Assembly (NCBI GenBank): GCA_011523845.1
Contig: WTFV01000155.1
Location: 9,386 to 73,385, forward strand
Reading direction: 5' to 3'
Length of the DNA: 64,000 nucleotides
DNA from: Acidobacteriota bacterium
GTDB taxonomy: Bacteria > Acidobacteriota > Vicinamibacteria > Vicinamibacterales > UBA8438
Part shown: positions 9,261 through 56,613 of the stretch, one piece after another
Layout: each line of letters starts with the position of its first letter
How positions within the stretch are numbered: position 1 is the first letter of the stretch
Program-made: the position numbers and the translations under genes
The notes under the pieces: model-generated
What the model saw: only the letters and a program-made list of their open reading frames with translations
What the model was told of the DNA's origin: nothing
Databases searched by the model: none

Positions 9261-9452
9261 TTGCGGCTCGACGCGCCCTGCTCGTTGCCGGAAGGAACGG
9301 TGTTGGATCTCGTCCTCGACGATGAAGGCGACGACCTGGACGCTACCGAGCGCGAGGGCCTTCACGACGCGATTTCCAGTGCCTGGACGGCCGCGAAGGC
9401 GGGACGTGTCCGTCCGGCGCAGGAGATCATCGACGCGTTGCGCCGCCGGTGA
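9261..9452 (+). CDS. Small antitoxin-like protein paired with a ParE-like toxin (start uncertain; TTG 9261 or CTG 9234)
   Basis: 63-aa ORF with an acidic centre (LDDEGDDLDATEREGL). Its stop overlaps the downstream GTG start (GTGA at 9449-9452). Confidence 0.5.
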   Translation: MRLDAPCSLPEGTVLDLVLDDEGDDLDATEREGLHDAISSAWTAAKAGRVRPAQEIIDALRRR

Positions 9453-9757: not shown

Positions 9758-9809
9758 TTCCATGCCGTAGTACGGGGTCGGGGCTGGGCGAGCCAGCAGG
9801 CGACAGACG

Positions 9810-9823
9810 GTTTTGTACAAAAC
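9810..9823. promoter_or_regulatory. Perfect 14-bp palindrome GTTTTGTACAAAAC, candidate operator upstream of the GHKL gene
   Basis: Read directly. It is AT-rich in a GC-rich genome and lies 30 nt upstream of the ATG at 9853. Confidence 0.35.
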
Positions 9824-9852
9824 GGCCAGCATGCTCAGGACTGTTCTCACGC

Positions 9853-12320: not shown

Positions 12321-12322
12321 GC

Positions 12323-12910
12323 GGCGAACGCGTTGTCCGCCATCTCATACGCCACACCGGCCTCGTCGAGGCGACGCGCCAGCCAGTTGTGGCGGTTGAA
12401 GTAGACCTGCAAGCGAAACGGCGCCCAGGTGGGCACCCGTACGTAGCACAACCCGAAGACCTCGTCGATGAAATAGAAATAGTAGTGCAGGCACTTGCCA
12501 GTGCTGGGCTTCAGCGATGTCTGGTGTGTCTTCTTGTCATGCCAGGGACGAAACGACGCACAGGTCTCCATCGCCGAGAAGATGTGCACCAGACCGGGAT
12601 GATGGCCGCGTTCTTCGAGGATCTCCTTCACCCGCTGTTCCTTGCGGAAGGCTTTGTGCTTGCGAATGAATTCAATCGCAATCCCGGCCTCGGCCGCGAG
12701 GCGTTCGGCATTGGTGCGTATGTCATCGCGCAGCGGTTGTGCCCAGAGCGGGTAATCGAACAGCCGGACACCGCGACTGCCGAGATACCCCGCCATGGCT
12801 GCGGCATGACCGATATCGGGCAGCGTTCCCGTGATCACGACGCGATCGAAGCAGGAGATGACACCAACAATATCGTCCTGATGACGCTCCACGAATGGGC
12901 CGATCGTCAT
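12323..12910 (-). pseudogene. 5' portion (~195 codons) of a conserved hypothetical gene, 3'-truncated; it sits between the GHKL part and the DUF3883 part
   Basis: ORF 12077..12910 reads as a plausible protein (VISCFDRVVITGTLPDI, CYVRVPTWAPFRLQVYFNRHNWLARRLDEAGVAYEMADNAF) down to about 12323. Beyond that it becomes Arg/Pro/Ala junk. Confidence 0.45.
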
Positions 12911-12953
12911 GGTTCCCCCCGGATCGAGACACGCTACGTTCGACCAGTGTACA

Positions 12954-13625
12954 ATGAACTTTGGTTCCGGCTACGCCGGGTTAGGTGGTACGGCGAGCTA
13001 CGGGGAGCTCTTCGAGCGTCTCAGCAGTCTCACCGACCCAGACGGCCCGCGTGCAAGCAAGGACAGGTTCACGCCGCTGGCCGAAGTACGCCCGACCAGC
13101 GGGCGCCGTGGTGGTCGTGGTGGCGGCGGAGGTAAGGGAGGCAAGACATCGCATCTGCACCCCTCGGCCGAACTTCGCGAGCTCGTGGGAATCGTAGGGG
13201 AGATCCACGCGTACCGTTTCCTGCGCAAGGAGTTCGGAGAGGACGTGACGTCGGACGCGTGGGTTTCCGAGATCCGACTGAAGGTCCTGCCGCTGGTGGC
13301 GGGGGAGCAGGACGACACGAGCGACGGGCACGGCTTCGACTTTCGGTTCCGTTACAACCGGAAGACATGGTGCGTGGAGGTGAAGGCGACCTCGGGAGAC
13401 GACACGCAGTTCGATCTGGGAAGTACCGAGATCAACGCGGCAACCCGTCTTGCCCGCAAGCGAGGCTGGCGGTGGCGAATCCTGCGGATTCGCAGCGCGC
13501 TGTCTGAGCGGCCGGAATTGGATTGGCTTCCCAACCCGTTCGAGGAGGGCTTCGGCAAGCACTTCCGGCTGCGTCGAGGCGGGATGATGGTGTCCTACGC
13601 GCATAAGAAGGCCCGGACCGGTTGA
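12954..13625 (+). CDS. DUF3883-like (restriction-endonuclease-fold) domain protein with an RGG/Gly-rich linker; possibly the detached 3' end of the GHKL gene
   Basis: ORF 12909..13625, with an internal ATG at 12954. GIVGEIHAYRFLRKEFG ... GHGFDFRF ... WCVEVKATSGDD ... FDLGSTEINAA fits the DUF3883 core pattern as I recall it. Confidence 0.55.
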   Translation: MNFGSGYAGLGGTASYGELFERLSSLTDPDGPRASKDRFTPLAEVRPTSGRRGGRGGGGGKGGKTSHLHPSAELRELVGIVGEIHAYRFLRKEFGEDVTSDAWVSEIRLKVLPLVAGEQDDTSDGHGFDFRFRYNRKTWCVEVKATSGDDTQFDLGSTEINAATRLARKRGWRWRILRIRSALSERPELDWLPNPFEEGFGKHFRLRRGGMMVSYAHKKARTG

Positions 13626-13643
13626 GGCGAGGAGGCACAGCGC

Positions 13644-14313
13644 ATGCTTCGACCCCGCGCGGACATGCTGTCGCCGGCGCAACAGCGGCTCTGGCGGGAG
13701 TTGGGTGGTACGCCGGATGACTTCGTGCTTTACGGTGGCACAGCGCTCGCCCTGAGGCTCGGTCATCGGCAGTCGATTGACTTCGACTTCTTCTCCTCGG
13801 CCCAGGTGGATTCGACTCGACTGTTGCGCGAGGTCTCGTATCTTCAGGGAGCGGAAGTGGTGCAGCGCAGTCTCGATACGTTGACCTGCATCGTGGATCG
13901 CGCCGGTCCGGTGCGGGTCTCGTTCTTCGGCGATCTGACCCTACGCCGCGTTGCGGACCCTGATTCCCTCGCGGACCCCCTCGTGAACATCGCGTCGCCG
14001 CTGGATCTTGCCGCGATCAAGGCGGAGGTGGTGCAGGTTCGCGCAGCCGCCAAGGACTACCTGGACATCGATGCGCTGATTCACCGCGCCGGCGTTTCCT
14101 TGAGTGATGTGCTCGGCGCCGCACGTGCGGTGTTCGGTCCGGCGTTCAACCCCATGCCGACCTTGAAGGCGCTGTGCTTCTTCGCCGACGGACCTGGCCA
14201 CGCTGCCTCACGACGTGTGCCGGCGCCTGGTCGATGCGGCCTCTGCGGTTGATCCGACGAAGTTGCCGAGCTTCGAGTCTCTGGCCGGTGTCGCACCGGG
14301 AGCGTCATGCTGA
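13644..14313 (+). pseudogene. AbiEii/AbiGii-like nucleotidyltransferase (DUF1814-type), frameshifted near 14188-14192
   Basis: FVLYGGTALALRLGHRQSIDFDFF is the typical NTase motif. At GCCGACGGACCTGGCC the called frame turns to junk and stops at 14252. The +1 frame continues as DLATLPHDVCRRLVDAASAVDPTKLPSFESL to a TGA at 14311-14313, which overlaps the next ATG. Confidence 0.6.
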
Positions 14314-14627
14314 ACCCGGAACCGCCGGCAGAACTGCTGCGCGTTGCAGAACGGATGGTGTGGTTCAAACCGCCGGAGGAGACGCTGGCCGATCCGGTGC
14401 TCTTCCTGAGCCACCTGATGACTTACGGCACGGTCGATGACCTCCGCGTGGTGCGGACGCATTTCACCGACGAACAACTGCGCCAGGTTCTGCACGCCGG
14501 TCTGCCGGGCGTCTTCGATGCGCGGTCGTGGGCGTACTGGCACGCCGTGCTCGACGTCCGGCCGGTGCCGCCCCTGCCTACGAGGCGTCTGGCAGGCGTG
14601 GACGATGCGCAGTTCCCGCCGCGTTGA
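14307..14627 (+). CDS. Hypothetical protein, 106 aa, coupled to the NTase gene
   Basis: The ORF has protein-like composition (VWFKPPEETLADPVLFLSHLMTYGTVDDLRVVRTHFTDEQLRQVL). Its ATG overlaps the restored stop of the upstream gene (ATGCTGA). Confidence 0.5.
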   Translation: MLNPEPPAELLRVAERMVWFKPPEETLADPVLFLSHLMTYGTVDDLRVVRTHFTDEQLRQVLHAGLPGVFDARSWAYWHAVLDVRPVPPLPTRRLAGVDDAQFPPR

Positions 14628-14796
14628 GCGTTGATGGTTCATGGTTCTCACCGTCGCGGCGGGCCGGTGACCGGCGTCGCGTTCGTGGTAGTGTCGCAGT
14701 TTGAATCGTCGGGTAGAGGCTCAGACTGAGGAGATCCGCTCGCACGCAGCTCTTTCAGGACTTGATCAGCGAAGGCTTTGGCTTGCTCTTCGGGAG

Positions 14797-15099
14797 TCAC
14801 TTCCGATCATCCTGGATCTCCCGGCTCTCGTGGTCTTCCACCGCGCTCTTCAGGCGGTCGAGGAGCCTGTCCATCTCGCGCCCGAGTGGGGTGTTGTTGA
14901 GGTCGTCGGACTCGCGGACGGCTTTCTGTACAGCGGCGAGTTCGGCAGAGGTGGTGAAGACCGAGCCCTTGACGATGAGCACCGTGAGCAGGGCCTCTAG
15001 CGCGTTGATTCGTTCGGGTACCGACCCAAAGGTCATCGGAGTCGAGATCGACGGGAGAGGGGGCTCGGACCGCGTTCTCAGTCCAGGGGTATTACTCAT
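14797..15099 (-). CDS. Hypothetical protein, 100 aa, helical or coiled-coil-like
   Basis: The ORF is in the lower-G+C island and overlaps the upstream small ORF by 8 nt. I recognise no family. Confidence 0.35.
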   Translation of the reverse strand: MSNTPGLRTRSEPPLPSISTPMTFGSVPERINALEALLTVLIVKGSVFTTSAELAAVQKAVRESDDLNNTPLGREMDRLLDRLKSAVEDHESREIQDDRK

Positions 15100-15358
15100 G
15101 TGAATGCTCTAGGTCCAGCGCGCGCACCCGTTCCGAGAGCCGCTCGATCTCCTTCTGCTGAGCGATGACCATCTCAAGCAGGCGCCGGATGGCCAGCGCG
15201 TCGTAGTGCCAGTGGGGGTACACACCCGGCACCACATCGGAGACGCCGGCGCCACGGTTGAGGGGGCCGCGCTTGCCCTCAGCTGATCGGGTGTAGTCTC
15301 CGAACGAGCGTAGCCACTCTTCAACAGAGAGTTCACTCAAGACAACTTCGTCGCTCAT
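15092..15358 (-). CDS. Hypothetical protein, 88 aa
   Basis: This is the last 88 codons of the artefactual ORF 15092..18052, starting at the ATG at 15358. The sequence MSDEVVLSELSVEEWLRSFGDYTR...QQKEIERLSERVRALD is protein-like. Confidence 0.4.
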   Translation of the reverse strand: MSDEVVLSELSVEEWLRSFGDYTRSAEGKRGPLNRGAGVSDVVPGVYPHWHYDALAIRRLLEMVIAQQKEIERLSERVRALDLEHSHE

Positions 15359-15541
15359 GGGTCCGCTGCAGGCCGGGATCGGAACCAGTGTACCACCGAG
15401 CGATCCGACAAAGCTAGACCCCGAGCCTGCATCCCGCCGCGCCGAGCACGGTGCCTGGAAGGGCAGCTCGGGAGCCGATCCGGACCGCACCGTGATACGC
15501 TGAAGGACTGCGCCGCAGAACGGCGCCGGTTCCTGTCGTCC

Positions 15542-25210: not shown

Positions 25211-25297
25211 GCCCGACAATCGTCGCCTGCGGCTCCGATTGCCGCCCGACCGGGCCCTGACCAGGGGGGTAAGCCGTTCTTGCGGCGCAGACTCCTA
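25211..25297. repeat. Composite intergenic repeat (family B + family A), overlapping the nuoI stop codon
   Basis: GCCCGACAATCGTCGCCTGCGGCTCCGATTGCCGCCCGACCGG followed by ...GCCGTTCTTGCGGCGCAGACTCCTAG. The CTA at 25295-25297 is the complement of the nuoI TAG stop. Confidence 0.75.
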
Positions 25298-25765
25298 GCG
25301 CGTGTAGTGTTCGATGGGGACGCCGTCGTACATCTCGTCGACGCGCAGGATCTGGGCGTTCCGGCTGTACGTGCCCAGCTCGTAGTCCTCGCTCATGATG
25401 AGCGCCTTCACCGGCTTGGTCGGACAGACTTCCGCGCAAAGACCGCAGAACGAGCAGCGCGACAGGTTGAAGTCGAAATAGTCGAGCACCTTGATCTTGT
25501 GCCCCGGCTCGCGATGACCGCCGAGGTTGATCAGCTCGTCCGGGCAGGCCTTGGCGCACTGGTCGCACACGATACAGGTCTGTGCGCCGGTTTCGGGCTC
25601 GACCTGCAGGCGAAGCACGCCGCGGAACCGGGGCGCCACGGGCCGCCGCTCCTCGGGGTACTGGAACGTGAAGGCCGGCTGCGGGGTGTACTTGAGCGTG
25701 ACCCAGAGTCCCTTCAGCAGGTCCACCAGGAACACGGTCCGAAAGAACTTGGCCAGAAACAGCAC
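25295..25765 (-). CDS. nuoI: NADH-quinone oxidoreductase subunit I-like 2x[4Fe-4S] protein
   Basis: 156-aa ORF. The N-terminus LLKGLWVTLKY...FTFQYPEE is NuoI-like. Cluster motifs are CIVCDQCAKACP and CSFCGLCAEVCP. Confidence 0.85.
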   Translation of the reverse strand: MLFLAKFFRTVFLVDLLKGLWVTLKYTPQPAFTFQYPEERRPVAPRFRGVLRLQVEPETGAQTCIVCDQCAKACPDELINLGGHREPGHKIKVLDYFDFNLSRCSFCGLCAEVCPTKPVKALIMSEDYELGTYSRNAQILRVDEMYDGVPIEHYTR

Positions 25766-25771
25766 CTCGAC

Positions 25772-26335
25772 CTACCCCCGATCCTCGACGAGGACAGGCT
25801 CGGTCTGTCCCGCCATGATCACCCGCTCCTTGCGGAGGATCGTGTTCTCCTTGCGGATCTTGTCCTGCAGCCGCATCAGTCCGTAGAGCAGCGCCTCGGG
25901 ACGCGGCGGACAGCCCGAGACGTACACGTCGACGGGCACGATCTTGTCGACGCCCTGCAGCACGCTGTAGGTCGGGAAGGGGCCGCCCGCGTTCGAGCAG
26001 CTTCCCATGGAGATGACCCACTTCGGCTCGGGCATCTGATCGTACAGCCGCCGCAGCACGGGCGCCATCTTCTTCGTGACGGTGCCGGCCACGATCATCA
26101 GGTCGGACTGCCGCGGAGACGCGCGGAACACCTCCGCCCCGAAGCGCGCGATGTCGTAGCGCGACGTCGATGTCGCGATCATCTCGATCGCGCAGCACGC
26201 CAGACCGAAGCCCATCGGCCATAGCGAGGACTGCCGCGCCCAATTGAGGACGCGATCGAGATTGGTCGTGATGAAGTTGTCTTCGAAGCGATGATCGATG
26301 AGACCCATCTGGATGGATTCCGCTGCCGGCCGCAT
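25772..26335 (-). CDS. nuoB: NADH-quinone oxidoreductase subunit B-like (PSST/N2-cluster) protein
   Basis: 187-aa ORF containing [24 protein letters not shown] and [12 protein letters not shown]. Confidence 0.85.
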
Positions 26336-26363
26336 CAGCGGCCGGCGCTTCGCTCAACCCCGT

Positions 26364-26627
26364 CTACTTGCCCTCGTACCACTGGGCGTTGGTGTCGATG
26401 AAGCTCTCCCACTGTTCCGGAACCTCGTCGTTGGCGAAGATCGCCTCGACGGGACACGCCGGCACGCAGGCGCCGCAGTCGATGCACTCCTCCGGGTGGA
26501 TGTAGAGCATCGTCTCCGCCTCGAACTCTTCCTCGTCCTTGCGCGGATGGATGCAATCGACGGGACAGACATCGACGCATGCTGTGTCCTTCGTCCCGAC
26601 GCACGGCTCGCAAATCGAATAGGCCAT
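26364..26627 (-). CDS. Small [3Fe-4S][4Fe-4S]-type ferredoxin (FdxA-like)
   Basis: 87-aa ORF containing CVDVCPVDCIHP and CIDCGACVPACPVEAI. It lies directly upstream of nuoB on the same strand. Confidence 0.85.
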   Translation of the reverse strand: MAYSICEPCVGTKDTACVDVCPVDCIHPRKDEEEFEAETMLYIHPEECIDCGACVPACPVEAIFANDEVPEQWESFIDTNAQWYEGK

Positions 26628-26775
26628 TTACCTCCTCCGAACTACGCCAACTCAGGATTGCCGCTCACAGAATACAGGCTGGCCGGTCAGGGATCAAGGT
26701 GAAGTCGGGTCGTGCCGGCGAGGCGGGACGGGCGGTGGACGCCGTCGAAGCACCCGCGGTACCATCGCCGGCGGC

Positions 26776-27705
26776 ATGTCCGCGGCTGTCCCCGTCACTC
26801 TGATTCGCGGTCGACCCGTGCGGGTCGCCGGACCGCGGCTCGGGGGCAAGCCCTCCTGGCTGCGCGTCAGGGCGCCCGGCAGCCCGGGCTACCTGCGGCT
26901 CGCCCGGTTGACTCGCGATCTCGCCCTGAACACCGTGTGCCGGGAGGCGAGTTGCCCGAACATCGGAGAGTGCTGGCAGCACGGCACCGCCACGTTCATG
27001 ATTCTGGGCAGCGTCTGCACGCGGTCGTGCGGCTACTGCAACGTCGTGCACGGCGCCCCGGGCTCGGTGGATCCGACCGAGCCGGACCGCCTCGCGGAGG
27101 CTGTCGCCTCCCTCGGTCTCGAGTACGTGGTCGTCACCTCGGTCGACCGCGACGACCTGCCGGACGGGGGCGCCTCGGTCTTCGCCGCCACGATTCGGGC
27201 CGTTCGGCGCCGGATGAAGAGCTGCCGCATCGAGGTGCTCATCCCCGACTTCGCGGGCCGCGACCGCGACCTGGAATGCGTGCTCGACGCCGGCCCGGAC
27301 GTGCTCAACCACAATCTGGAGACGGTCGAGCGTCTCTACCGCACGGCCCGACCCGGCGGTCGCTACCGCCGGGCCCTGCGCCTCCTCGATCGTGCGAGGC
27401 GCTACAGGCCGTCGACGCCGACCAAGTCGGGGGTCATGGTGGGACTCGGCGAGTCCCGCGAGGAGATTCTGGCCGCCCTGGCGGATCTGCGGGGCGCCGG
27501 CTGCGCCATCCTCACCATCGGCCAGTACCTGCGGCCGTCGGACGCGCATCTGCCCGTCGCGCGCTACTACCACCCCGACGAGTTCGCGGAGCTGAGGGAG
27601 CACGCTCTCGGCCTTGGATTCCGGCACGTGGAGTCGGGACCCCTCGTACGGAGCTCCTACCACGCGCACGAGCAGGCGGACGCGCTGGACCGGTGCGTGT
27701 CGTGA
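26776..27705 (+). CDS. lipA: Lipoyl synthase
   Basis: 309-aa ORF with NTVCREASCPNIGECW and the radical SAM motif CTRSCGYCNV. Confidence 0.9.
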   Translation: MSAAVPVTLIRGRPVRVAGPRLGGKPSWLRVRAPGSPGYLRLARLTRDLALNTVCREASCPNIGECWQHGTATFMILGSVCTRSCGYCNVVHGAPGSVDPTEPDRLAEAVASLGLEYVVVTSVDRDDLPDGGASVFAATIRAVRRRMKSCRIEVLIPDFAGRDRDLECVLDAGPDVLNHNLETVERLYRTARPGGRYRRALRLLDRARRYRPSTPTKSGVMVGLGESREEILAALADLRGAGCAILTIGQYLRPSDAHLPVARYYHPDEFAELREHALGLGFRHVESGPLVRSSYHAHEQADALDRCVS

Positions 27706-33005: not shown

Positions 33006-34442
33006 ATGGCCGGCATGCTCACGGCGGTCATCGTCTACATGTCGGTGCTGGTGCTGGTCGGGGCCTGGCGCAGTCGCAGCGTCCGGACCGGCGACGACTT
33101 CCTGGTCGCCGGGCGCCGCCTGCCGGCGCGCGTGCTCGTCTTCACGCTGCTCGCCACCTGGATCGGCTCGGGGAGCCTCTTCGGCGGGGCCGGACTCGGC
33201 TACCGCTCGGGATTCTCCGCGCTCTGGCAGTCCGCCGGGGCGTGGGCCGGCATCGCGCTCGTCTACTTCATCGCGCCGCGCGTGCGCCGGATCTCCCAGT
33301 ACACCGTGCCCGACATTCTCGAGTTGCGGTACGGACCGGCGGCGCGGGTGCTGGGGACGATTACGACGGTGCTGGCCTATGCCACCATCGCGGCCTATCA
33401 GTTCCGGGGCGGCGGCCGCCTGCTGGCGCTCGTCGCCGGTGTCGATCCGGGTACCGGGGCGCTGATCACGGCGGTCTTCTGCATTCTCTTCACGTCGCTC
33501 GCCGGCATGCTGTCGATCGCCTATCTGGACGTGGGCAACGGGATCGTCATGACCGTCGCGGTGATGTTCGGGGTCGCCTTCCTGATCGGCGACGCGGGCG
33601 GGCTGTCGGCGTCGATCGCGGCGCTCGAGCCGCATCAGGTGTCCCTGTTCGGCGACATGGGCGCGCAGGCGGCCTTTGCGCTGTTCCTGCCGACCATGTT
33701 CCTGCTGCTCGGCGAAGCGAACATGTACCAGAAGTTCTTCTCGGCGCGCGACGAGCGGGCCGCCCGCCTGGCCGTGGTCGGCTGGATCGCCGGCACGATC
33801 GTCGTCGAGACGCTGATCGACTCGATCGGGATCTTCGGCAGCCTGGCGGTCGGCGGGCTGGCTGTGGCGGAGTCGGAGGAGATCGTCATCCGCGTCGCCA
33901 CCGGCGTGCTGCCGCCCGTGCTCGGGGTGCTGCTGGTATGCGGCGCCGCCGCAATAGTCGTCTCCACCGCGAACAGCTTCCTGCTGACGCCGTCGACGAA
34001 CCTGATCCGCGACGTCTATCAGCGCTTCGTCAATCCCGGGGTCACCGACCGGCAGGTGGTGCTCTACACGCGCGTGATCGTGGTCGTCGTCGGCGGCCTC
34101 GGCTACGTTGCCGGCAACTTCTTTCCGACCATTCTCGCGATGGCGCTCTGGGCGTACACGATGTACGGCGCCGGCATCACTCCCGCCCTGCTCGGCGCGC
34201 TGCTGTGGCGACGGGCGACGCGGGCCGGCGGCGTCGCGTCCATCCTGGTCGGCATGCTGACGACGCTCGTCTGGGAGATCGTCGGTCTGGCGCGCGGGGT
34301 GGACGGAGTGGCCGCCTATCCCTTCGGCTGGCAGACGGCGTACCCGGCGCTCTCGCTGTCCATCGCGACCCTCGTGATCGTCAGTCTCGCGACGCCGCCG
34401 CCGACCGACGCGGAGATCGAGTTGCGGCCTGCCGTGCCATGA
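33006..34442 (+). CDS. Sodium:solute symporter (SSF) family transporter
   Basis: 478-aa polytopic ORF with N-terminal DFLVAGRRLP...ATWIGSGSLFG. Its stop overlaps the next ATG (ATGA at 34439-34442). Confidence 0.85.
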   Translation: MAGMLTAVIVYMSVLVLVGAWRSRSVRTGDDFLVAGRRLPARVLVFTLLATWIGSGSLFGGAGLGYRSGFSALWQSAGAWAGIALVYFIAPRVRRISQYTVPDILELRYGPAARVLGTITTVLAYATIAAYQFRGGGRLLALVAGVDPGTGALITAVFCILFTSLAGMLSIAYLDVGNGIVMTVAVMFGVAFLIGDAGGLSASIAALEPHQVSLFGDMGAQAAFALFLPTMFLLLGEANMYQKFFSARDERAARLAVVGWIAGTIVVETLIDSIGIFGSLAVGGLAVAESEEIVIRVATGVLPPVLGVLLVCGAAAIVVSTANSFLLTPSTNLIRDVYQRFVNPGVTDRQVVLYTRVIVVVVGGLGYVAGNFFPTILAMALWAYTMYGAGITPALLGALLWRRATRAGGVASILVGMLTTLVWEIVGLARGVDGVAAYPFGWQTAYPALSLSIATLVIVSLATPPPTDAEIELRPAVP

Positions 34443-35806
34443 GAGTCGCCCTCATCGCCACCTACGAGCTGGGGCGCCAGCCCTTCGGCCTGGCGTCGCC
34501 CGCGGCCTGGCTGCGCCGCGCCGGCATGGACGTCACCTGTCTCGACCTCTCGCGGCAGCCGTTCGACGCGCGGGTGGCCGGCGCCGACCTCGTCGCGTTT
34601 CACCTGCCCATGCACACCGCGACGCGCCTCGCCGTGCCGGTGATCAGGCGGGTCGCGCGTCTGAATCCGGCGGCGCGCCTGTGCGCCTACGGCCTGTATG
34701 CGCCCTTGAACGCGGAGCTGCTCCGCTCGATCGGCGTCGAGCACGTGCTCGGTGGGGAGTTCGAGGCGGATCTGGTGCGTCTGGCGACCGGCGTGGCGGA
34801 CGGCGCAACCGACTTCGTTCCGTTGCCCGGTCTTCCGCGGCTGGACCTGATTCCGCCGTGGCGCGCGGGGCTGCCGCCGCTGGGCGGCTACGCCACGCTG
34901 CAGCACGGCGCGGCAAGGAAGGTGGCCGGCTATACCGAGGCGAGCCGCGGCTGCAAGCACGTCTGCCGGCACTGCCCGATCGTCCCGGTCTACGGCGGCC
35001 GCTTCCGCGTCGTGGGAACCGACACCGTATTCGCCGACGTCGCGGCACAGGTGGAGCAGGGGGCCGGGCACATCACGTTCGGCGACCCGGATTTCTTCAA
35101 CGGGGTGGGGCATGCCATGCGGGTGGTCGAGGGGGTCGCGCGGCGGTTCCCCGGTCTGACCTACGACGTCACGATCAAGGTGGAGCACCTGATTGCGCAC
35201 GCCGACCTGCTGCCGCGGTTGCGCGAGACCGGCTGCCTCTTCGTCACCAGTGCCGTGGAGTCGTTCGACGACGTCGTGCTGCGGCGGCTGGAGAAGGGCC
35301 ATACGCGCGAGGACACGATCCGCGCCGTGGCGCTCTGTCGCGCCGCCGGCGTGCTGCTGGCGCCGACTTTCGTCGCCTTCACGCCCTGGATGACGGTCGA
35401 CGGCTATCGCCGGATGCTGGCCGAGATCGAGCGGCTCGACCTCGTCGAGCAGGTGGCGCCGATCCAGCTCACGCTGCGGCTGCTCGTTACCGCCGGCTCC
35501 CGCTTGCGCGAGCTGGAGGATCTGAAGGCGCGACTCGGGCCGTTCGATCCCCAGCGACTCGTCTATCCGTGGCGGCATCCGGATCCGCGGGTGGACCGGC
35601 TGGCCGAAGACGTCCGGGCGTTGGTCGGACGGCGGCTGACCGCCGGTCGCCGTGAGCTGTTCGACGCGGTGCGAACGCTGGCGCACGACGGACACGCGCC
35701 GGCGCCGAGCGAGTCGGACGCCGCCGGACGAACCGAGGTGCCGTACCTGAACGAGCCGTGGTACTGCTGAGCGGAACCGGCTGCCGGGGAGGTGGCCCTG
35801 GTATGA
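34439..35806 (+). CDS. CUAEP-tail radical SAM protein, predicted selenoprotein (UGA 35768-35770 read as Sec); 455 aa if read through
   Basis: CxxxCxxC motif in EASRGCKHVCRHCPIV. The called ORF stops at a TGA right after EPWYC. In-frame continuation gives A-E-P-A-A-G-E-V-A-L-V and then a TGA at 35804-35806, which overlaps the ATG at 35803 of the next gene. Confidence 0.7.
35771..35802 (+). promoter_or_regulatory. Candidate bacterial SECIS-like hairpin downstream of the in-frame UGA
   Basis: GGCUGCC-GGGGA-GGUGGCC at 35779-35797 gives 7 bp including two G-U pairs. The alternative CCGGGG-AGGUGG-CCCUGG at 35784-35801 also folds. Both have G-rich apical loops about 15-20 nt after the UGA. Confidence 0.35.
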
Positions 35807-37086
35807 GACGCAGCGCGGCGCGCGTGCTGCTCGTCGCCGCCACGACGGGGTACCAGGTACGGTCCTTCGACGCGGCGGCCGAGCGCTTGGGTGTGCTGCT
35901 GGTTCTCGCCACCGACCGTTGCCATCGGCTCGACGATCCCTGGCGGGACCGGGCGGTTCCGATCCGGTTCCACGACGAGGCCGGCGCCGTTGGTGCGATT
36001 GTCGATACGGCTGCCGCCGGACCGTTCGATGCCGTGCTCGCCGTCGGGGATCGCCCCGCGCTGATCGGAGCCCTTGCGGCGCGGGCCCTCGGGCTCCGCG
36101 GAAACCCACCCGCGGCGGTGCGCGCCGCCGGACACAAGGTGAAGACCCGCATGCGCATGCGGTCGGCCGGGCTGCCTGTACCGTGGTTCCGATCGATCCC
36201 GTTGGACGCCGACGACGAGGCGCTGTTGCGGCGGGTGGCCTATCCCTGCATCGTCAAGCCGCTCGGAATGGCGGCGAGCCGCGGGGTGATACGGGCCGAC
36301 ACGCCGGCCGAGCTCGTGGCCGCGGCCGAACGGGTGCGCCGGATACTCGCGACGCCGGCGGTTCGCGCCCTCCGCGACCCGGCCAACGACTCGATGGCGG
36401 TAGAGGAGTACATAGCGGGTCGCGAGGTTGCGATCGAGGGCGTGATGACGCATGGGGAGCTTCAGGTCCTGGCCATCTTCGACAAGCCCGATCCTCTGGA
36501 TGGGCCGTTCTTCGAAGAGACGATCTACGTCACGCCCGACCGGCTGTCGACCGCGGAGCGCCGCGAGGTCGTCCGACAGGTGGCTGCCGCGATTCACGCG
36601 CTCGGCCTGACGCACGGTCCCGTGCACGCGGAATGCCGTCTCGGTCCGCGCGGGGTCGTCGTGCTCGAGGTGGCCGCGCGGCCGATCGGCGGGCTCTGCT
36701 CGCGGGTTCTCCGCTTCGACGGGCCCGACGGGAGCGCTCATGCGCTCGAAGACCTGCTGCTGCAGCACGCTCTGGGCGGGGCGGCCGATCGTTTCCGCCT
36801 GCGCCGGGAGGCGGCGGCGGTCATGATGATCCCCGTGCCGGGCGCGGGGATCTACGAGACGGTCGAGGGGCTGGACGCCGCCCGGTCGGCGCCCCGGGTC
36901 GAGGAGGTGATCATCACGGCCAAGCCCGGCCAGCGATTCGTGCCCTGGCCGGAGGGGGCGAGCTACCCGGGGTTCATCTTCTCGCGCGCGCGGAGTCCGG
37001 AGGACGCCGTCGCCGCCGTGCGCACCGCCCACGAGCTGCTCTCGTTTCGGCTCGCCCGGGATCTCCCGGTCGAGGCCGGCGGATGA
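35803..37086 (+). CDS. ATP-grasp domain protein (carboxylate-amine / L-amino-acid-ligase-like)
   Basis: ATG at 35803 within ORF 35758..37086. It contains YPCIVKPLGMAASRGVIR, VEEYIAGREVAIEG and HAECRL...VVLEVAARPIGG. Confidence 0.8.
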   Translation: MRRSAARVLLVAATTGYQVRSFDAAAERLGVLLVLATDRCHRLDDPWRDRAVPIRFHDEAGAVGAIVDTAAAGPFDAVLAVGDRPALIGALAARALGLRGNPPAAVRAAGHKVKTRMRMRSAGLPVPWFRSIPLDADDEALLRRVAYPCIVKPLGMAASRGVIRADTPAELVAAAERVRRILATPAVRALRDPANDSMAVEEYIAGREVAIEGVMTHGELQVLAIFDKPDPLDGPFFEETIYVTPDRLSTAERREVVRQVAAAIHALGLTHGPVHAECRLGPRGVVVLEVAARPIGGLCSRVLRFDGPDGSAHALEDLLLQHALGGAADRFRLRREAAAVMMIPVPGAGIYETVEGLDAARSAPRVEEVIITAKPGQRFVPWPEGASYPGFIFSRARSPEDAVAAVRTAHELLSFRLARDLPVEAGG

Positions 37087-37113: not shown

Positions 37114-37410
37114 CTATTGCTTTGCCTGCGGTGGGACGTACTCGGGCGGCAACGCCGATCCGTCGCCGAAGAAGAACTCCTCCATCTGCCGCGCAACCAG
37201 CTCCTGGGCTTCCTTCTGCCACGGCATCAGACGGTACTCGTTGAGGATCATCTTCATCCGCTCTTCCCAGAGCTTCCACGCCTCCTGCGACACGCTGTCG
37301 TAGATCCGCCTCCCGAGCTCTCCGGGCCACGGCGGCTCGTCGAGCCCCGGCATCTCCTTCTGGAACTTGACGCACTCGACGGTGCGTCCTCCGGCAGGCT
37401 TGTCGGCCAT
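37114..37410 (-). CDS. yggX: Oxidative-damage protection / Fe(2+)-trafficking protein YggX
   Basis: 98-aa ORF. VECVKFQKEMPGLDEPPWPGELGRRIYDSVSQEAWKLWEERMKMILNEYRL is a close match to the YggX pattern. Confidence 0.85.
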   Translation of the reverse strand: MADKPAGGRTVECVKFQKEMPGLDEPPWPGELGRRIYDSVSQEAWKLWEERMKMILNEYRLMPWQKEAQELVARQMEEFFFGDGSALPPEYVPPQAKQ

Positions 37411-49899: not shown

Positions 49900-51021
49900 A
49901 TGCCGATGCCCACGCCGTTTGTCGGTTTCTCATCCGGCAGTCCGGGCAGGCGTCGTTACCACGGGCTGTCACGCACGCTTCCGGTGATCGCCGCGGTGGC
50001 GGCGACGGTCATCGTCGCGCCCCGTGCCGCGCAGTTGGACACGTCGATGGAGCCAATCCTCACGTCGATGGGGTTTGGGTCCGGCGACCTGCGGAGACTC
50101 GAGCGCGGCGCCGCCGTCATCCGCAGCCTCGATACGCGCGCGCGTGAGGAGCTCGCCCACGTGGGCATGGTGTACCTGGACGCGAGCCCCGAGGAGTATG
50201 TCGAGCGGTTCCGGAGCATCGAGCAGTTCGAGCGCGGTCCCAGCGTGTTGCAGATGGGCCGCTTGGGCACACCGCCACGCATCGACGACCTCCAGTCTCT
50301 GACCCTCTCCGCCGAGGACTTCGCCGAGTTGCCGGCGTGTCGCCCGGGCCGTTGCGAGATGAAGCTCTCGTCGGCTGCCATGGACCTCTTCCGCGACGAG
50401 GTCGACTGGTCCTCCCCGCAGGCCTGGCGCCAGGCGGACGAGGTCATGCGCAGGATGCTCCTCGACCTGGTGCGCGCCTATCAGGCGGAAGGCAACGCGG
50501 CGCTCGGCGCCTACTTCGACCGCGAGCGGCCGCTGCCGGTGGCCGATCAGTTCCGGGCCCTGCTGGCAAGTCGCGAGGCCCTGCCCGACCAGGTGCCCAT
50601 CCTGTTCGCCTACCTGGACCACTACCCGCGGGATCTGCCGGAAGGCGCCGAGGACTTCTTCTACTGGACGATGGTCGACTTCGGACTCAAGCCCACCATC
50701 CGCGTGAACCACGTCACCATCTACCCGCTCGCCGCAAGACTGTCGACGGGCGTCGCCTATGCGATCGCAATAAAGCAGCTCTATGCCAGCCACTATTTCC
50801 ATTCCACGCTGGAGTTGCGCTTCCTCCTCGATCGCCCCGACCTTACGGGCAGACCCGGCGCGGCGCTCGTTTCCATCGCCCGTTCCCGCAGCGACGGGAT
50901 GACCGGCGTACGGGGGTCGCTCCTGCGGCCAGTCGTCAGCCGCCGTTCGCGCAATGCGCTGCGGGGCTACCTCGAGCACGTGAGGCTGCAACTGCAGCCT
51001 TCCGCCTCCGGGCCTTCCTGA
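49900..51021 (+). CDS. Hypothetical exported protein (373 aa)
   Basis: The ORF has a TM or signal segment LPVIAAVAATVIVAPRAAQ and protein-like composition. I recognise no family. Confidence 0.5.
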   Translation: MPMPTPFVGFSSGSPGRRRYHGLSRTLPVIAAVAATVIVAPRAAQLDTSMEPILTSMGFGSGDLRRLERGAAVIRSLDTRAREELAHVGMVYLDASPEEYVERFRSIEQFERGPSVLQMGRLGTPPRIDDLQSLTLSAEDFAELPACRPGRCEMKLSSAAMDLFRDEVDWSSPQAWRQADEVMRRMLLDLVRAYQAEGNAALGAYFDRERPLPVADQFRALLASREALPDQVPILFAYLDHYPRDLPEGAEDFFYWTMVDFGLKPTIRVNHVTIYPLAARLSTGVAYAIAIKQLYASHYFHSTLELRFLLDRPDLTGRPGAALVSIARSRSDGMTGVRGSLLRPVVSRRSRNALRGYLEHVRLQLQPSASGPS

Positions 51022-51154: not shown

Positions 51155-51853
51155 CTACCGGAGAGCGTCGATGCGATCCAGGGCTGCCCGCAGCGCACGG
51201 AGCACGCGCTCCCCTTTCTCGAGATCGGTCGCAAACGGAGCGCGCGAGAGCTCCAGTTGCACCCACGGCATCTCCCCGGCGTGAGAACGCGTTATGAAGC
51301 CTCCCCGAAACGGGTCGTTGACGATGACCCGCGGCCCGAACTGCTCGCGGAAGCTCCTGCTCAGGCAGGCCATCCACTCCTCGGGGCACGTGCCGTCGGC
51401 GTTGCCGAGACACACGTGGGGGCGCTCCTGTCCCGGTCCGGGTCCGATCGGAGGTCCTACCGCCAGCATCGTGTGGCAGTCGATCGCCAGACCGACGTCC
51501 CTCCCTGCGAGTTCCGTCAACCGGGCGTGGTACGGACGGTAGTGCGTGGCGAGCAGCGCCTCGACGGCCTGCGCATCGAGCGGCTCGCGCCAGACGGGCG
51601 CATTGAAGCACGTGTGCGTCTTGACGACGCCGTCCGGCCGGCGGTCGTCCTCGGCGCGGTTGAGATCGACCACGGCTCGCGCGACGTCCGTGGTGACGTA
51701 GTGCTGCACCTCCGAGGCGATGTCGTAGATGGCCGCGGCGTGCTCGTCGCCGTCTTCGGCAATCTGCGCCGGCGAGAGCAGGCACCCCGGCGCCACGTTC
51801 TCGGGCACGCGGAGTCCGGCATGGGGAACCGACACGAGAATCGGCAACGTCAT
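51155..51853 (-). CDS. N-formylglutamate amidohydrolase (FGase) family protein
   Basis: 232-aa ORF containing VSVPHAGLRVPE, VVDLNR and LAIDCHTM. Its ATG overlaps the ggt stop (ATGA). Confidence 0.8.
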   Translation of the reverse strand: MTLPILVSVPHAGLRVPENVAPGCLLSPAQIAEDGDEHAAAIYDIASEVQHYVTTDVARAVVDLNRAEDDRRPDGVVKTHTCFNAPVWREPLDAQAVEALLATHYRPYHARLTELAGRDVGLAIDCHTMLAVGPPIGPGPGQERPHVCLGNADGTCPEEWMACLSRSFREQFGPRVIVNDPFRGGFITRSHAGEMPWVQLELSRAPFATDLEKGERVLRALRAALDRIDALR

Positions 51854-53619
51854 GCTCCCGCCTTCGTCGCAGCGGTCACGTCGCGCGCCACGCCGTCCGG
51901 ATCGCGCACCGCACGCCGCGGCCCACCCGCCGCGCCGTCTCGCCTCGGGTCGGCGACCCCGATCAGCTCTCTCCGGTCGCGCACCACGAGTTGCACGCAG
52001 CCCAGGTAGAAGGAGAACGGTTCGCGGAGGTCGACGGTGAAGCCGCGCTTCTCGAACGCCCGCGGCAGGTCGTCCCGCATCCGGGAAGCCTCCAGCGATA
52101 CGCGCCCCGACAGCGAGCAGAACAGGCGAGGCGCCGTCACCGCGTCCAGCGGTGCCGCGCGGTCATGCAAGAGACGGATGAGCACCTGCAGGATGGACGG
52201 CGCAATCCGCTCGCTGCCCGGCGATCCGATCGCCAGCAGCGGCCGGCGCCCCCGGAACACGATGGCAGGCGCGACGCTCGCCCAGGGCACCGCGTTCGGG
52301 CGCATGTAGTACGGGTGCGAGATGTCCTTGTACTCGAACGCGCTCATGTAGTTGTTGTAGAGAAAGCCGAGCTCCGGGGTCGCGGCGCACGCGCCGTAGA
52401 CGTTCTCTATCGACTGGGTCAGGGCGACCGCGTTCCCCGCCCGATCCATCACCGACAGGTGGGTCGTCTCGCCGCGCCCCAGGTAGCGCTTCCCGATCGC
52501 GGCGGCCAGCTCGTGGGCGTAGTCGTCCCGCAGCATCCGCTTTTCGGTCACCTGCGAATAGAAGTTGGGGTCGAAGGGCCGATCGGCGCGGTCGAGGAAC
52601 GCGCGCCGGATCGTCTCGGCGAACAGCACCGCACCGTCCCGCGAATCGAGGCCCCGCCGCGCCTCCGGCAGGTGCTGGTGGATGTTCATCATCTCGACCA
52701 GCGCCTGGCCGGCGCCCGGGGGCGGCATGGTGAACACCCGGTGCCCGAAGAGGCGGCCGGTCAGCGGTCGGCGCTCGATGGGCATCGGGATCTGCGCCAG
52801 GTCGTCGCTGCGCAGGAAACCGTCGTGGCGCTCCATGTCCGCCTCGATCGCGGCGGCAATCTCTCCCTGGTAGAAGTCCGCGATGCCGTGCTCGGCCAGC
52901 CGCCGCAGCGTCGCGCCCAACGCGGGCTGGCGAAAGACCTCGCCGGCGCGATACGGACGCCTGCCGTCGCGCAGGAAGAAAGGCGCGGCCGTGCCGTCCC
53001 GCAGGAACTGCACCTCCCGGCGCGTGAGCGCGTGCTGCAGCAGGCTCACTTCGTAGCCGCTCTCGGCGAGGCGCACCGCGGGCTGCAGCACGTCGGAGAG
53101 CGGCAGCGTCCCGTAGGTAGCACGCACGTAGTCGAGAACGGCGGGCGTGCTCGGGACCGTCGTCGCGCGATGACCCCGTCGCCTTTCGGCGCGCGGATCG
53201 GTGAACGCGTCGGCTGTCGCGCGGTTCGGCGCACGGGACGAGCCGTCGAGCGCGAACGTCCGACCCGCCGTCGCATCGTGGACCAGCAACATCGTCTGGC
53301 CGCCGAGACCGGACGCGGCGGGCTCGCACACGCCGAGCGCGAACGCCGCCGCCACCGCGGCGTCGAAGGCGTTGCCCCCCGCCTCGAGCATCTCCACGCC
53401 GGCGGCCGTCGCGCAGTAGTGGGCGGTCGCCACCATGCCATCGCGCGACACGGCCAGCCGCTGCGGCTCGTGAATCCGGCGGTCGCTGAGCGTGAGCAGG
53501 TCGGTGTCGACCGCTTCGGAACGCTGAGGCTTCGTCCGCGTGGTGCGGCGTGGCCGAGCGGCCGCCTTCGGCCCGCTCGGGCGCTCTTGTGGTCCGGCCG
53601 CCCCGGGTTTCGCTTTCAC
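51850..53619 (-). CDS. ggt: Gamma-glutamyltransferase family protein (no obvious signal peptide; GTG start inferred)
   Basis: It contains GMVATAHYCATAAGVEMLEAGGNAFDAAVAA and the autoprocessing/nucleophile block GETTHLSVMD. The GTG at 53619 overlaps the upstream stop (GTGA). Confidence 0.8.
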   Translation of the reverse strand: MKAKPGAAGPQERPSGPKAAARPRRTTRTKPQRSEAVDTDLLTLSDRRIHEPQRLAVSRDGMVATAHYCATAAGVEMLEAGGNAFDAAVAAAFALGVCEPAASGLGGQTMLLVHDATAGRTFALDGSSRAPNRATADAFTDPRAERRRGHRATTVPSTPAVLDYVRATYGTLPLSDVLQPAVRLAESGYEVSLLQHALTRREVQFLRDGTAAPFFLRDGRRPYRAGEVFRQPALGATLRRLAEHGIADFYQGEIAAAIEADMERHDGFLRSDDLAQIPMPIERRPLTGRLFGHRVFTMPPPGAGQALVEMMNIHQHLPEARRGLDSRDGAVLFAETIRRAFLDRADRPFDPNFYSQVTEKRMLRDDYAHELAAAIGKRYLGRGETTHLSVMDRAGNAVALTQSIENVYGACAATPELGFLYNNYMSAFEYKDISHPYYMRPNAVPWASVAPAIVFRGRRPLLAIGSPGSERIAPSILQVLIRLLHDRAAPLDAVTAPRLFCSLSGRVSLEASRMRDDLPRAFEKRGFTVDLREPFSFYLGCVQLVVRDRRELIGVADPRRDGAAGGPRRAVRDPDGVARDVTAATKAGA

Positions 53620-55778
53620 CGGGATTCCCTGTCCGGCAGCCGGCTGGCGAGGAACTCCGCCAGCAGGAGGCTGCGTTGCACGAGGGTGATGCGCTTGACC
53701 GCTTCCTGCGGCGTGCGCAGGCCGCGGGCAACCGGTCCGAGCGCACAGACGCAGGCCTTGTCGGTCGGTACGAGGCCCGCGACCGACGGCCCGGCAGACG
53801 AGCCCCGCTCGAGAGCGAAGTCCAGGTCGGAAGCCACGCGGGCCAACTCGCCGGCCAGACGCCGACCCGCCGGGCGTTCCTCGAACGCCGGGCGCGTGGT
53901 CGCGGTCACCAGCTCGTGGCGCGGACCGCCCTTGCCGAGAATGGCGCGCATCTTGCGCGCCACCGCGTCGCCGGTGGCCGCCGTCGGAAAGGTCTCCACG
54001 ATGTCCGCGGTCACCCGATGCGGCAGGTGCAACGGGTGGCGTTCCGTGCGGAGGCCGGTCGTCGCGACCGCTATGCGGTCCGCCTGCGAGGAGATCTCCG
54101 CGATCTCCTCCAGCTTCCGCCACGTCCACCGCAGCGCGTCGGGTTTCCTGAACGCCCGTCCCAGCCACATCGATTCGGTCTCCACCTGGAGCCGGAACGT
54201 CCGCTGGCCGCGCCGTTGCAGCACGACCTTGTCGGGGTCCAGGCCGGGCTGCAGGACGAGCACCTCTCTGGCGCGCACCGCGGCGGCCCGGATCTCGTCG
54301 GCGCTGTAGCGGGCGTCCTGGCCCTCGTCGGCGTAGTACAGCACGCCCAGGGGAATCTGCGGCAGACGCCGCAGGCTGCGCAACGCGCGCAGCGCATACT
54401 CCAGCATCACGAGCGGCGCCCGCGACGTTGCGATGCCCTCGCCGTGCAGCCACTCCGGATCGCGGCGGAACGCCTGCGCGGGGAACTGATGCTCGACCGG
54501 CACGTCCAGGTTGCCGATCAGGAGCACGCCGTCGTCGAGGCCCGCCTTCGTCTGCCACGTCGCCACGACGCCCTCGTCGGACAGCTCCGGCACCTCGCGC
54601 AAGCCCAGGTCCTCGAACAGCGTCGACAGCTCCTTGAAGCCCTTCTGCATGCCGAGCGGATCGGTCGTCCGGCTCTGCACCCTGACCCAGTCGGCCAGTC
54701 GCCGCTCCATCCGATCGCGGCGCGCCGTGATGAACGTCGACAGGTGCGTGCTCGGATCCGATGCGGACGGCGCCAGCGTCGGCGGGCTTGGCGTGCCGTA
54801 GTACCGGGCGCTCGCCACCTCGACCAGCCGGTTGATGAACTTCGAGAAGTCGAGGCCGACGTGCTCGGCTCCCACCAGGTAGGACCCATGCTCGCCGAGG
54901 CTCGGGAGGCTGTTGATCTCCAGGATGTAGAGCTTGCCCTCGCCGTCCAGCCGCATGTCGACGCGGGCGCAGTCGCAGCACCCCACCGCGACGAAGGCGC
55001 GCCGGGCGAGCTCCTGCGCCTCCGCGGTCAGCGCGTCGCCGAGCGGGGCCGGACAGGCGTGCGAGATCGACCGGCCGCTCTTGCCCGTCTTGTCCTCGTA
55101 GGTATAGATGGCAGGTCCTTCCTCGCCGAACATCAGCTCCACGGGCGGAAAGGCATCCGGCGGATCGTTGCCGAGCAGGCCGACGTTGACCTCGCGGCCC
55201 TCGATGAACTGCTCGACCAGCACCGGTTGCCGGAACTCGTCGAAGATTACCCTGGCGGCCGCCCGCATCTCCGCCTCGTCGTCGACGACCTTGAGGCCGA
55301 ACGAGACCGCCTCGTTCTTCGGCTTCACGATGAGCGGATAGGCCAGCTCCGAGACCTCCGCATCGGGCGTGTGGAGCACCGCGAAGTCGGGTGTCGGCAG
55401 GCCGTGCTGCCGCAGGATCATCTTGGTGACGACCTTGTCGAGACACAGCGAGTGCGCCAGCGGACCGGACGCGACGTAGGGAATGCCCACCATCTCGAGG
55501 ATGCTCGGCACGTGCGTGTACCGCGCCTGCCCCTGCACGCCGTACGAGACGTTGAAGACGAGGCCCGGCCGCTCGCCCTTGACCACCCGCGGCATGAATT
55601 CCTCGAGCCGCGCGACCAGGTCCTTGTCTCCCTCCATCGCGACCACCTGATGTCGGCCCGCCTTGAGGGCGGAGACGAGCCGGCCGATGGTCTTCAGCGC
55701 GATAGTCTCGCGGTTCGGCATGCCGAACAGATTGATGACGTTGCCGGTCCCGCGGTTGTAGACGACGGCGATCTTCAT
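53616..55778 (-). CDS. Fusion protein: D-Ala-D-Ala-ligase-like ATP-grasp domain + M20-peptidase-like domain with substituted metal ligands
   Basis: ATG at 55778 preceded by GAGGAGAGC. The N-terminal half is Ddl-like (MKIAVVYN..., YPLIVKPKNEAVSFGL, VEQFIEGREVNVGLLG, YILEINSLPSLG). The C-terminal half has M20 topology but reads LLIGNLDVPV, GEGIATSRA, YYADEGQDA and GPVARGLRTPQE where H/D/EE/H are expected. Confidence 0.75.
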   Translation of the reverse strand: MKIAVVYNRGTGNVINLFGMPNRETIALKTIGRLVSALKAGRHQVVAMEGDKDLVARLEEFMPRVVKGERPGLVFNVSYGVQGQARYTHVPSILEMVGIPYVASGPLAHSLCLDKVVTKMILRQHGLPTPDFAVLHTPDAEVSELAYPLIVKPKNEAVSFGLKVVDDEAEMRAAARVIFDEFRQPVLVEQFIEGREVNVGLLGNDPPDAFPPVELMFGEEGPAIYTYEDKTGKSGRSISHACPAPLGDALTAEAQELARRAFVAVGCCDCARVDMRLDGEGKLYILEINSLPSLGEHGSYLVGAEHVGLDFSKFINRLVEVASARYYGTPSPPTLAPSASDPSTHLSTFITARRDRMERRLADWVRVQSRTTDPLGMQKGFKELSTLFEDLGLREVPELSDEGVVATWQTKAGLDDGVLLIGNLDVPVEHQFPAQAFRRDPEWLHGEGIATSRAPLVMLEYALRALRSLRRLPQIPLGVLYYADEGQDARYSADEIRAAAVRAREVLVLQPGLDPDKVVLQRRGQRTFRLQVETESMWLGRAFRKPDALRWTWRKLEEIAEISSQADRIAVATTGLRTERHPLHLPHRVTADIVETFPTAATGDAVARKMRAILGKGGPRHELVTATTRPAFEERPAGRRLAGELARVASDLDFALERGSSAGPSVAGLVPTDKACVCALGPVARGLRTPQEAVKRITLVQRSLLLAEFLASRLPDRESR

Positions 55779-56131: not shown

Positions 56132-56613
56132 ATGCAGCCGTTCACGCGGGGCCGGTCACGGCTCGGAATCGGGCTCGTCGTGGCCGCGACGGCGGCAATG
56201 TTGCTCGGTGCGGCCTTCTCGGCCCGCTGGGGGACGAAGCGCTGACCGCCCGCCTGAGCGCCGACGCGGCGGATCTGGCAGACCTGTTCGCCGCGACGTA
56301 CGGACCGCGGACGGGCTCACCCGCCACGGAGGCGGCCGGGGACGTTGCGCTCTCGCTGGCGGCCACGGGAACGCCGCACGCCATCGATCTGGTCATCTGG
56401 CGTCCGGTCTCGGCGTACCGGCGGCCGACCGAGTCGATTGGAAACGTCGGCGGCATCGCCCGCATCCGCGACTCGCCGGGAATCGTGTACGACCGGCGTC
56501 TCGGAACCGGCCGGCCACTCGTGGGGTGGTGGTACAATCCGCTCTCGAGGACGCGACAAGCCCGGCCGAGGGGTCAGACCGCCCGCCGGGTGACGGACGG
56601 GTGCTCGACATGA
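56132..56613 (+). pseudogene. Small exported protein gene with an apparent -1 frameshift in a G5 run (56229-56233)
   Basis: The ATG at 56132 gives signal-like MQPFTRGRSRLGIGLVVAATAAMLLGAAFSARWG and then stops at 56243. With one extra G the frame joins DEALTARLSADAADL...WWYNPLSR, ending at a TGA at 56611-56613. That stop overlaps the next ATG (ATGA). Confidence 0.45.

Follow-up and report, generated by a model that had tools for sequence, protein, structure and literature searches.

Does the in-frame TGA near the 3' end of a radical S-adenosylmethionine (SAM) gene end the protein, or does it encode selenocysteine (Sec, U)? The gene in question lies in a 64,000-nucleotide stretch of DNA (here denoted the window; positions 9,386 to 73,385 of contig WTFV01000155.1, assembly GCA_011523845.1) from a Vicinamibacterales-like bacterium of the Acidobacteriota. 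The open reading frame (ORF) starts with ATG at position 34439 of the forward strand, and its first in-frame TGA, at 35768-35770, comes after ...LNEPWYC. Past this TGA the same frame continues as GCG GAA CCG GCT GCC GGG GAG GTG GCC CTG GTA (35771-35803), which reads AEPAAGEVALV with the A-E-P codons at 35771-35779 directly 3' of the TGA, and it closes at a second TGA, 35804-35806, where the protein would truly stop. We hold it very probable that UGA 35768-35770 is a Sec codon and that the gene at 34439-35806 (455 codons, Sec444 among them, and the stop) specifies a radical SAM enzyme of 455 residues from the NCBIfam family NF040546, ending in ...WYC-U-AEPAAGEVALV. The enzyme would thereby carry a vicinal Cys-Sec pair at 35765-35770, formed by Cys443 (TGC, 35765-35767) and Sec444 (TGA). 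At its 5' end the gene overlaps a symporter gene, whose stop TGA 34440-34442 and the radical SAM ATG share the bases ATGA; at its 3' end the second TGA overlaps in the same way the ATG at 35803 of a gene encoding an ATP-grasp ligase.

A first-pass annotation, made from the letters of the window, had proposed that this is a selenoprotein gene mis-called as short. Its coordinates for the two TGA codons, the AEP and AAGEVALV segments, both ATGA overlaps and the CKHVCRHC motif are each correct to the base, and its proposal is backed by the family hidden Markov model (HMM), by the comparison of TGA and Cys codons among relatives and by a hairpin resembling a selenocysteine insertion sequence (SECIS). 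TGA is also the commonest ordinary stop in the window, ending 28 of the 46 gene calls as against 17 for TAG, indicating that UGA is not reassigned genome-wide.

We scored the read-through protein, with U written as C, against NF040546, an equivalog model named 'CUAEP/CCAEP-tail radical SAM (seleno)protein' whose cutoff is 500 bits. The first-pass annotation had given this family name and suggested such a profile search, which bore the name out: the protein scored 604.3 bits over profile positions 1-466 of 468, above the curated cutoff and with the tail aligned to the profile. The 443-residue version without the tail scored 586.4 bits and reached only profile position 457, the 12-residue extension contributing 17.9 bits. 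As the match without the tail ends at position 457 of 468, the curated model expects about 11 further residues. Together with the score at or above cutoff, the other features of family membership are present, namely the C-(U/C)-A-E-P tail and the CxxxCxxC [4Fe-4S]/SAM motif, C172-K-H-V-C176-R-H-C179 (residues 172-179, 34952-34975 of the forward strand), whose columns are invariant in our alignments A1 and A3 (ArsL included). Pfam detected the radical SAM domain PF04055 (2.2e-11) and a weak B12-binding-like N-terminal domain, and the second-best family was ArsL (NF040542) at 243 bits.

To learn which codons relatives use at the aligned site, we scanned 185,579 species-representative genomes, which yielded at least 598 relatives, and kept the best 80 loci (L001-L080). 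These are mostly from Acidobacteriota, the closest being metagenome-assembled genomes (MAGs) of Vicinamibacterales with 81-82% identity. Two of the 80 loci are cut by contig ends, so the site was read in 78: it is TGA in 62 and TGC or TGT in 16, never TAA or TAG and never any other codon. At the tail end of the same loci the stops are TGA in 40, TAG in 28 and TAA in nine (37 of 77 being TAA or TAG). The chance of finding TGA alone at the internal site is 2e-18 when calculated naively and 0.01 when only seven independent clades are counted; this exclusive use of TGA is unlike an ordinary stop.

The sequence after the site also behaves as coding. AEP follows in frame in 77 of the 78 loci, with VEP in the remaining one. 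Among the UGA loci the first and second positions of the three codons are invariant, except for one GTG (Val, L063), while the third positions vary (Ala codon: G40/C17/A4/T1; Glu codon: G47/A15; Pro codon: C27/G15/A13/T7), which is the signature of translated sequence. The first-pass annotation had proposed looking for protein-level conservation past the UGA and for Cys-containing homologues aligning C-C-A-E-P across it, and both were found, the latter for example in L009, L033, L035 and L070. On a neighbour-joining tree the Cys forms fall into several clades nested among the Sec forms, with at least seven switches between the two, an interleaving that is typical of selenoprotein families. Four Cys forms out of 15 have a tail of only 6-7 residues (CAEPxxx(x)); in Sec forms at least 11 residues always follow U.

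Folding of the RNA downstream of the UGA revealed a SECIS-like hairpin at 35782-35803 of the forward strand, beginning 11 nucleotides past the UGA and consisting of a 5' arm (35782-35789), a G-rich apical loop AGGUGG (35790-35795) and a 3' arm (35796-35803). We examined its conservation in alignment A2, an ungapped alignment of the 62 UGA loci with column numbers starting at the U of UGA. Pairing joins columns 17-22 to columns 33-28, and the pairs change in identity from locus to locus: pair 17-33 is CG in 27 loci, AU in 16 and GC in 14, and pair 18-32 is AU in 22, GC in 17 and GU in 13. Paired cells make up 87.4% of the total; sliding the 3' partners by 1-3 columns lowers this share to 42-54%. 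Cells with changes on both sides number 58 versus 19 ± 6 in shuffled alignments, none of 500 shuffles reaching 58. A subgroup of the form GGGACC-AGUU-GGUCCC uses a register shifted by one, as does the hairpin of the window, so the A2 figures underestimate the pairing. The loop is conserved as well: G24 is present in all 62 loci and U26 in 58 of them, and position 25 holds G or U.

The hairpin accompanies the TGA codon: it is mostly lost in Cys forms, and the best stem has a median of 7 base pairs at Sec loci versus 4 at Cys loci (p = 1.4e-5). The residues of the tail differ by lineage (EQVAL, DQLVP, AQVAL, EPAAP, GEVAL) with the pairing maintained. Because the residues change while the pairing is kept, and some Cys forms drop the tail, the part past AEP seems to be shaped by RNA structure rather than by what the protein does. 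From these comparisons we conclude that C-U-A-E-P is a motif at the protein level and that the rest of the tail is probably there mainly to carry the SECIS; in the window, the residues encoded after AEP within 35771-35803 would thus serve chiefly to encode the hairpin.

The hairpin at 35782-35803 would act as a bacterial SECIS that recruits SelB with Sec-tRNA(Sec). The SECIS of Escherichia coli fdhF needs a G-U in its apical loop and has a spacer of about 11 nucleotides; the likeness to the family hairpin is a resemblance only. As in fdhF and the general bacterial model, the hairpin lies within the coding sequence, starts about 11-13 nucleotides after the UGA and presents its apical loop about 19 nucleotides from the UGA, with a G and then a U conserved in the family. 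It differs in having a short stem (6-9 base pairs) with no obvious conserved bulged U, and in lying at the extreme 3' end of the ORF, so that most of the C-terminal peptide is fixed by it. The last base of its 3' arm in the window is the A of ATG 35803, with which the next gene begins.

Several observations weigh against selenocysteine insertion at this UGA. The RNA folding proposed in the first-pass annotation gave a divided answer: the hairpin is conserved with covariation, but the single-sequence folds of 35760-35840 and 35768-35809 (z = -0.8 and -1.1) are not significant against shuffles, and the register of the window hairpin departs by one from that of the family majority. Folding energy is uninformative in DNA of 69% GC, the composition of the window, hence we relied on covariation and the support for the hairpin is comparative only. 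Rfam at gathering thresholds detected no SECIS family in the window. ARAGORN and Rfam, at the same thresholds, found no tRNA-Sec in the 64 kb, only a tRNA-Arg, and the E. coli proteins SelA, SelB and SelD, used as tblastn queries, matched nothing in the window or the 80 related loci. The sel genes are not linked to the radical SAM locus, and as neither they nor tRNA-Sec were found in the window or the flanks, the capacity of the source genome to decode Sec is assumed. Acidobacteria as a phylum do include Sec users with selenoproteins (PMC1794560). In a SelD search of a plasmid collection, aimed at the megaplasmid of T. roseum (Thermomicrobium roseum, which has an annotated family member), Thermomicrobium was not among the 40 records and ten organism names listed; another 136 records and 42 names lay beyond the listing.

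With no Sec machinery seen in the window, some room is left for a UGA that is read through without selenium, a suppressor tRNA (a tRNA-Cys with UCA anticodon, or an allo-tRNA) inserting Cys or another residue. Acidobacteria possess tRNAs with 8/4 and 9/3 structures that may be missense or nonsense suppressors, and selC*-type tRNA-Cys opal suppressors are reported in other phyla (Mukai et al., PMC5389517). A general suppressor would not need the hairpin that SelB needs, yet a position-specific hairpin, its G-(G/U)-U loop conserved, goes with the UGA and is degraded where the site encodes Cys. Moreover, an efficient general opal suppressor would be costly where UGA is the normal stop of 28 of 46 genes, and the NCBI curators name the family a selenoprotein; we give suppression a slim chance. 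A slimmer one goes to the TGA being a genuine stop, with the protein ending at ...WYC and the downstream conservation belonging to a non-coding RNA element, such as a hairpin controlling translation of the ligase gene. All gene calls in the databases do end at the TGA, and in the window a GGAGG in the hairpin loop, 10 nucleotides upstream of ATG 35803, could influence ligase initiation. The codon comparisons speak otherwise: 16 homologues carry a Cys codon and read on into AEP, the AEP codons vary at third positions only apart from the single GTG, and TAA and TAG never occur at a site whose loci use them for 37 of 77 tail-end stops. In addition, the ligase start may overlap the hairpin or lie as far as about 980 nucleotides from it, and the curators' HMM includes the tail. 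A pseudogene, or a sequencing or assembly error in a Cys codon, needs only one base change to turn TGC or TGT into TGA, but the identical 443-residue product is present on 12 independent metagenome contigs, and TGA stands at this site in 62 species-level genomes with a co-conserved hairpin; the comparative data effectively refute an error, and its likelihood is close to nil. We therefore retain Sec at position 444 as the reading of this UGA. The gene shows the usual comparative hallmarks of a bacterial selenoprotein, with Cys opposite Sec in homologues, coding conservation beyond the UGA and a SECIS-like hairpin.

The selenoprotein status of CUAEP-tail proteins is already curated by NCBI and is not new, and the window gene is an ordinary member of a known, functionally uncharacterised family with a known kind of mis-annotation. 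Searching the literature for CUAEP, CCAEP and NF040546, we found one relevant sentence and nothing further: the family is listed as a CU-motif selenoprotein and called 'uncharacterized' (10.1101/2022.07.06.499078). A search for selenocysteine in connection with Vicinamibacter or Thermomicrobium roseum gave no usable literature. The window protein shares with the family the CxxxCxxC motif, the ...EPWYC-U-AEP tail and the length class, with no essential difference; it departs slightly from the majority in its tail, AAGEVALV instead of TxEQVALV, and in its hairpin register, and its upstream symporter is lineage-specific.

The annotated member from T. roseum, WP_012643191.1, has the same TGA-AEP arrangement, a hairpin and the same early end of the RefSeq protein. 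In T. roseum DSM 5159 the locus (L088, 8935-10440) is on megaplasmid NC_011961.1, where the TGA is followed by AEPLEDPSGPV... and the hairpin arms are GGACCC/GGGUCC. This locus has no ATP-grasp neighbour; genes for a pyridoxal-phosphate-dependent aminotransferase, a major facilitator superfamily transporter and a GNAT protein adjoin it.

Because gene callers stop at UGA, databases hold a protein of 443-444 residues. Among the 120 best database homologues, 118 end at ...EPWYC, and each of the 12 contigs that encode exactly the 443-residue product was called as ending at the TGA. As deposited, the product of the window gene lacks 12 or more residues, and so do the products of nearly all its relatives. 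The missing Sec is probably located at the business end of the enzyme, and structural, phylogenetic or expression work based on the short model would miss it. New here are the description of the SECIS, the RNA-shaped tail beyond AEP and a conserved gene neighbourhood.

In the window, the neighbourhood consists of three genes on the forward strand, for the symporter, the radical SAM protein and the ligase, followed by convergent YggX-like and molybdopterin oxidoreductase genes. The first gene of the three-gene unit (33006-34442) encodes a sodium:solute symporter (SSF; PF00474 at 1e-35, TIGR00813). The third (35803-37086) encodes an ATP-grasp L-amino-acid ligase (PF13535, PF18603 LAL_C2, PF18130), which carries the ATP-grasp fold together with the N- and C-terminal domains specific to L-amino-acid ligases and matches the Protein Data Bank (PDB) entry 3VOT (BL00235) at 1e-47 over residues 26-413. 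The convergent gene at 37114-37410 (reverse strand) encodes a YggX-like protein of Fe(II) trafficking and protection from oxidative damage (NF003817, 117 bits with a cutoff of 74; PF04362).

We counted neighbours by tblastn of the window proteins in the 65 loci where enough sequence was present; a clustering of the ORFs on either side was dropped, being polluted by antisense ORFs in GC-rich DNA. The ligase gene lies directly downstream in 57 of the 65, in Sec and Cys forms alike, and a YggX-like gene lies within 4.5 kb in 50, in either orientation. A conserved upstream transporter was rejected, since the sodium:solute symporter is upstream in only 14 close relatives. In two loci, L055 and L057, a gene for an NfuA-like iron-sulfur (Fe-S) carrier lies directly upstream of the radical SAM gene. 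The YggX-like and NfuA-like neighbours suggest that, in aerobes, an oxygen-sensitive enzyme is provided with its own Fe-S cluster maintenance.

The first-pass annotation had also argued that the coupled geometry of the radical SAM and ligase genes requires decoding of the UGA. The overlap does exist, although the reading as a selenoprotein does not need it, and the argument was overstated: without read-through the gap would be only 32 nucleotides, which would not preclude re-initiation. Nor is tight spacing general in the family: the ligase start, taken from inferred starts, lies within ±14 nucleotides of the tail stop in only 14 of 38 loci. An ATGA overlap at an ATG start is found in the window and in L025 and L076, and in the other loci without tight spacing the two genes are 16 to about 980 nucleotides apart. 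The GGAGG of the window, at 35788-35792, sits in the apical part of the hairpin, and we speculate that a ribosome unfolding the SECIS might expose the ribosome-binding site of the ligase gene. This arrangement is not conserved in most relatives, and the hairpin was rejected as a general Shine-Dalgarno element or regulator of the ligase gene owing to the same variation in distance.

The chemistry of the enzyme is the interesting part that remains, and ArsL offers the nearest comparison. Both proteins are built from a Rossmann-like domain at the N terminus, a radical SAM core and a C-terminal tail rich in cysteine, with a tail motif of the vicinal dithiol type. They are 31% identical over about 390 residues, with many invariant core residues in common, and the ArsL HMM covers residues 4-390 of the window protein. 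The two also differ. The window protein scores 243 bits against an ArsL cutoff of 450, whereas a true ArsL (L089) scores 653; in place of RCCLKC its tail reads WYCUAEP and follows an additional linker of about 50 residues; its neighbours do not include arsM, arsQ or arsN, which may be compared with the ars cluster of P. amygdali; and its partner is an L-amino-acid ligase. By score, tail and gene context the window protein falls outside ArsL, yet its mode of action is probably a related one.

ArsL cleaves SAM to methylthioadenosine and a 3-amino-3-carboxypropyl group, and the cysteines of its C-terminal RCCLKC bind As(III) and are required for product formation (10.1101/2024.02.01.577332; 10.64898/2026.04.29.721666). 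ArsL and Dph2 are the only two enzymes described in the literature consulted as generating an aminocarboxypropyl radical from SAM. BL00235, the closest solved relative of the ligase, makes Met-Gly and Met-Met (PMC6920838). Our best guess for the function, drawn by analogy with ArsL as a paralogue, is that the flexible tail, through its Cys-Sec pair, would present a soft heteroatom substrate, that aminocarboxypropyl transfer from SAM would produce a methionine-like amino acid and that the co-transcribed L-amino-acid ligase would condense this product into a dipeptide. Carried further, the selenoenzyme and the ligase could form an unrecognised pathway in which As, Sb, Se, S or a similar element is presented for 3-amino-3-carboxypropyl transfer, giving an antimetabolite like methionine or arsinothricin that ends up in a dipeptide, possibly a 'Trojan horse' antibiotic; we put this forward tentatively and consider it rather unlikely as a whole. 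Two points count against such a function: no ars genes lie near the radical SAM gene in the window, and the CUAEP tail offers only two soft ligands, one fewer than ArsL.

The AlphaFold model of the window protein is confident overall, with a predicted local distance difference test (pLDDT) of 88.8 and a predicted template modelling (pTM) score of 0.88. Past residue 420 the confidence drops to 49-70, in keeping with a flexible tail. Among solved structures the nearest folds are AprD4, OxsB, TsrM and MgmA, all of Rossmann plus radical SAM architecture; our PDB searches found no structure of ArsL or of a CUAEP protein. A vicinal Cys-Sec on a flexible C-terminal extension is also present in mammalian thioredoxin reductase (Gly-Cys-Sec-Gly) and in the CU-motif selenoproteins listed by Haft (HgcA and SAO-locus proteins), which belong to unrelated protein families. 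In the window protein, the Cys-Sec pair may serve as a redox shuttle or as a ligand for a metal or metalloid. The family is an uncharacterised sister of ArsL, present in at least 598 species-level genomes and almost always paired with an L-amino-acid ligase. The pair of selenoenzyme and ligase is widespread in soil Acidobacteria, and it occurs also in MAGs labelled Methylomirabilota, Latescibacterota and Verrucomicrobiia.

Elsewhere in the window, the GC content drops to 0.59-0.65 at 9200-15500, versus 0.69 overall. This region encodes a 963-residue protein with a weak Sacsin/HATPase-like match (9508-12399), a NOV_C domain protein (12909-13625) and an AbiEii toxin nucleotidyltransferase (13644-14252), and it is probably an acquired defence or toxin-antitoxin island. 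On the reverse strand at 51155-55778, a second, unrelated ATP-grasp gene (720 residues, with a C-terminal domain like that of D-Ala-D-Ala ligase) lies upstream of genes for gamma-glutamyltranspeptidase and N-formylglutamate amidohydrolase; this may be a cluster of peptide or gamma-glutamyl metabolism. The forward strand at 4503-9206 carries a fused gene of the pyruvate:ferredoxin oxidoreductase type (1567 residues; POR_N, PFOR_II, POR, Fer4), and the long antisense ORFs across it were dismissed as artefacts of GC-rich DNA. At 25295-27705, a second radical SAM gene (26818-27705, forward strand) is transcribed away from a small group of ferredoxin-like genes and from an Oxidored_q6 gene, whose product resembles the 20 kDa subunit of NADH-quinone oxidoreductase or a hydrogenase small subunit. 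Two further ORFs, at 49984-51021 (345 residues) and 56601-57848 (415 residues), have no Pfam match at 1e-5 and are well supported by codon-position GC.

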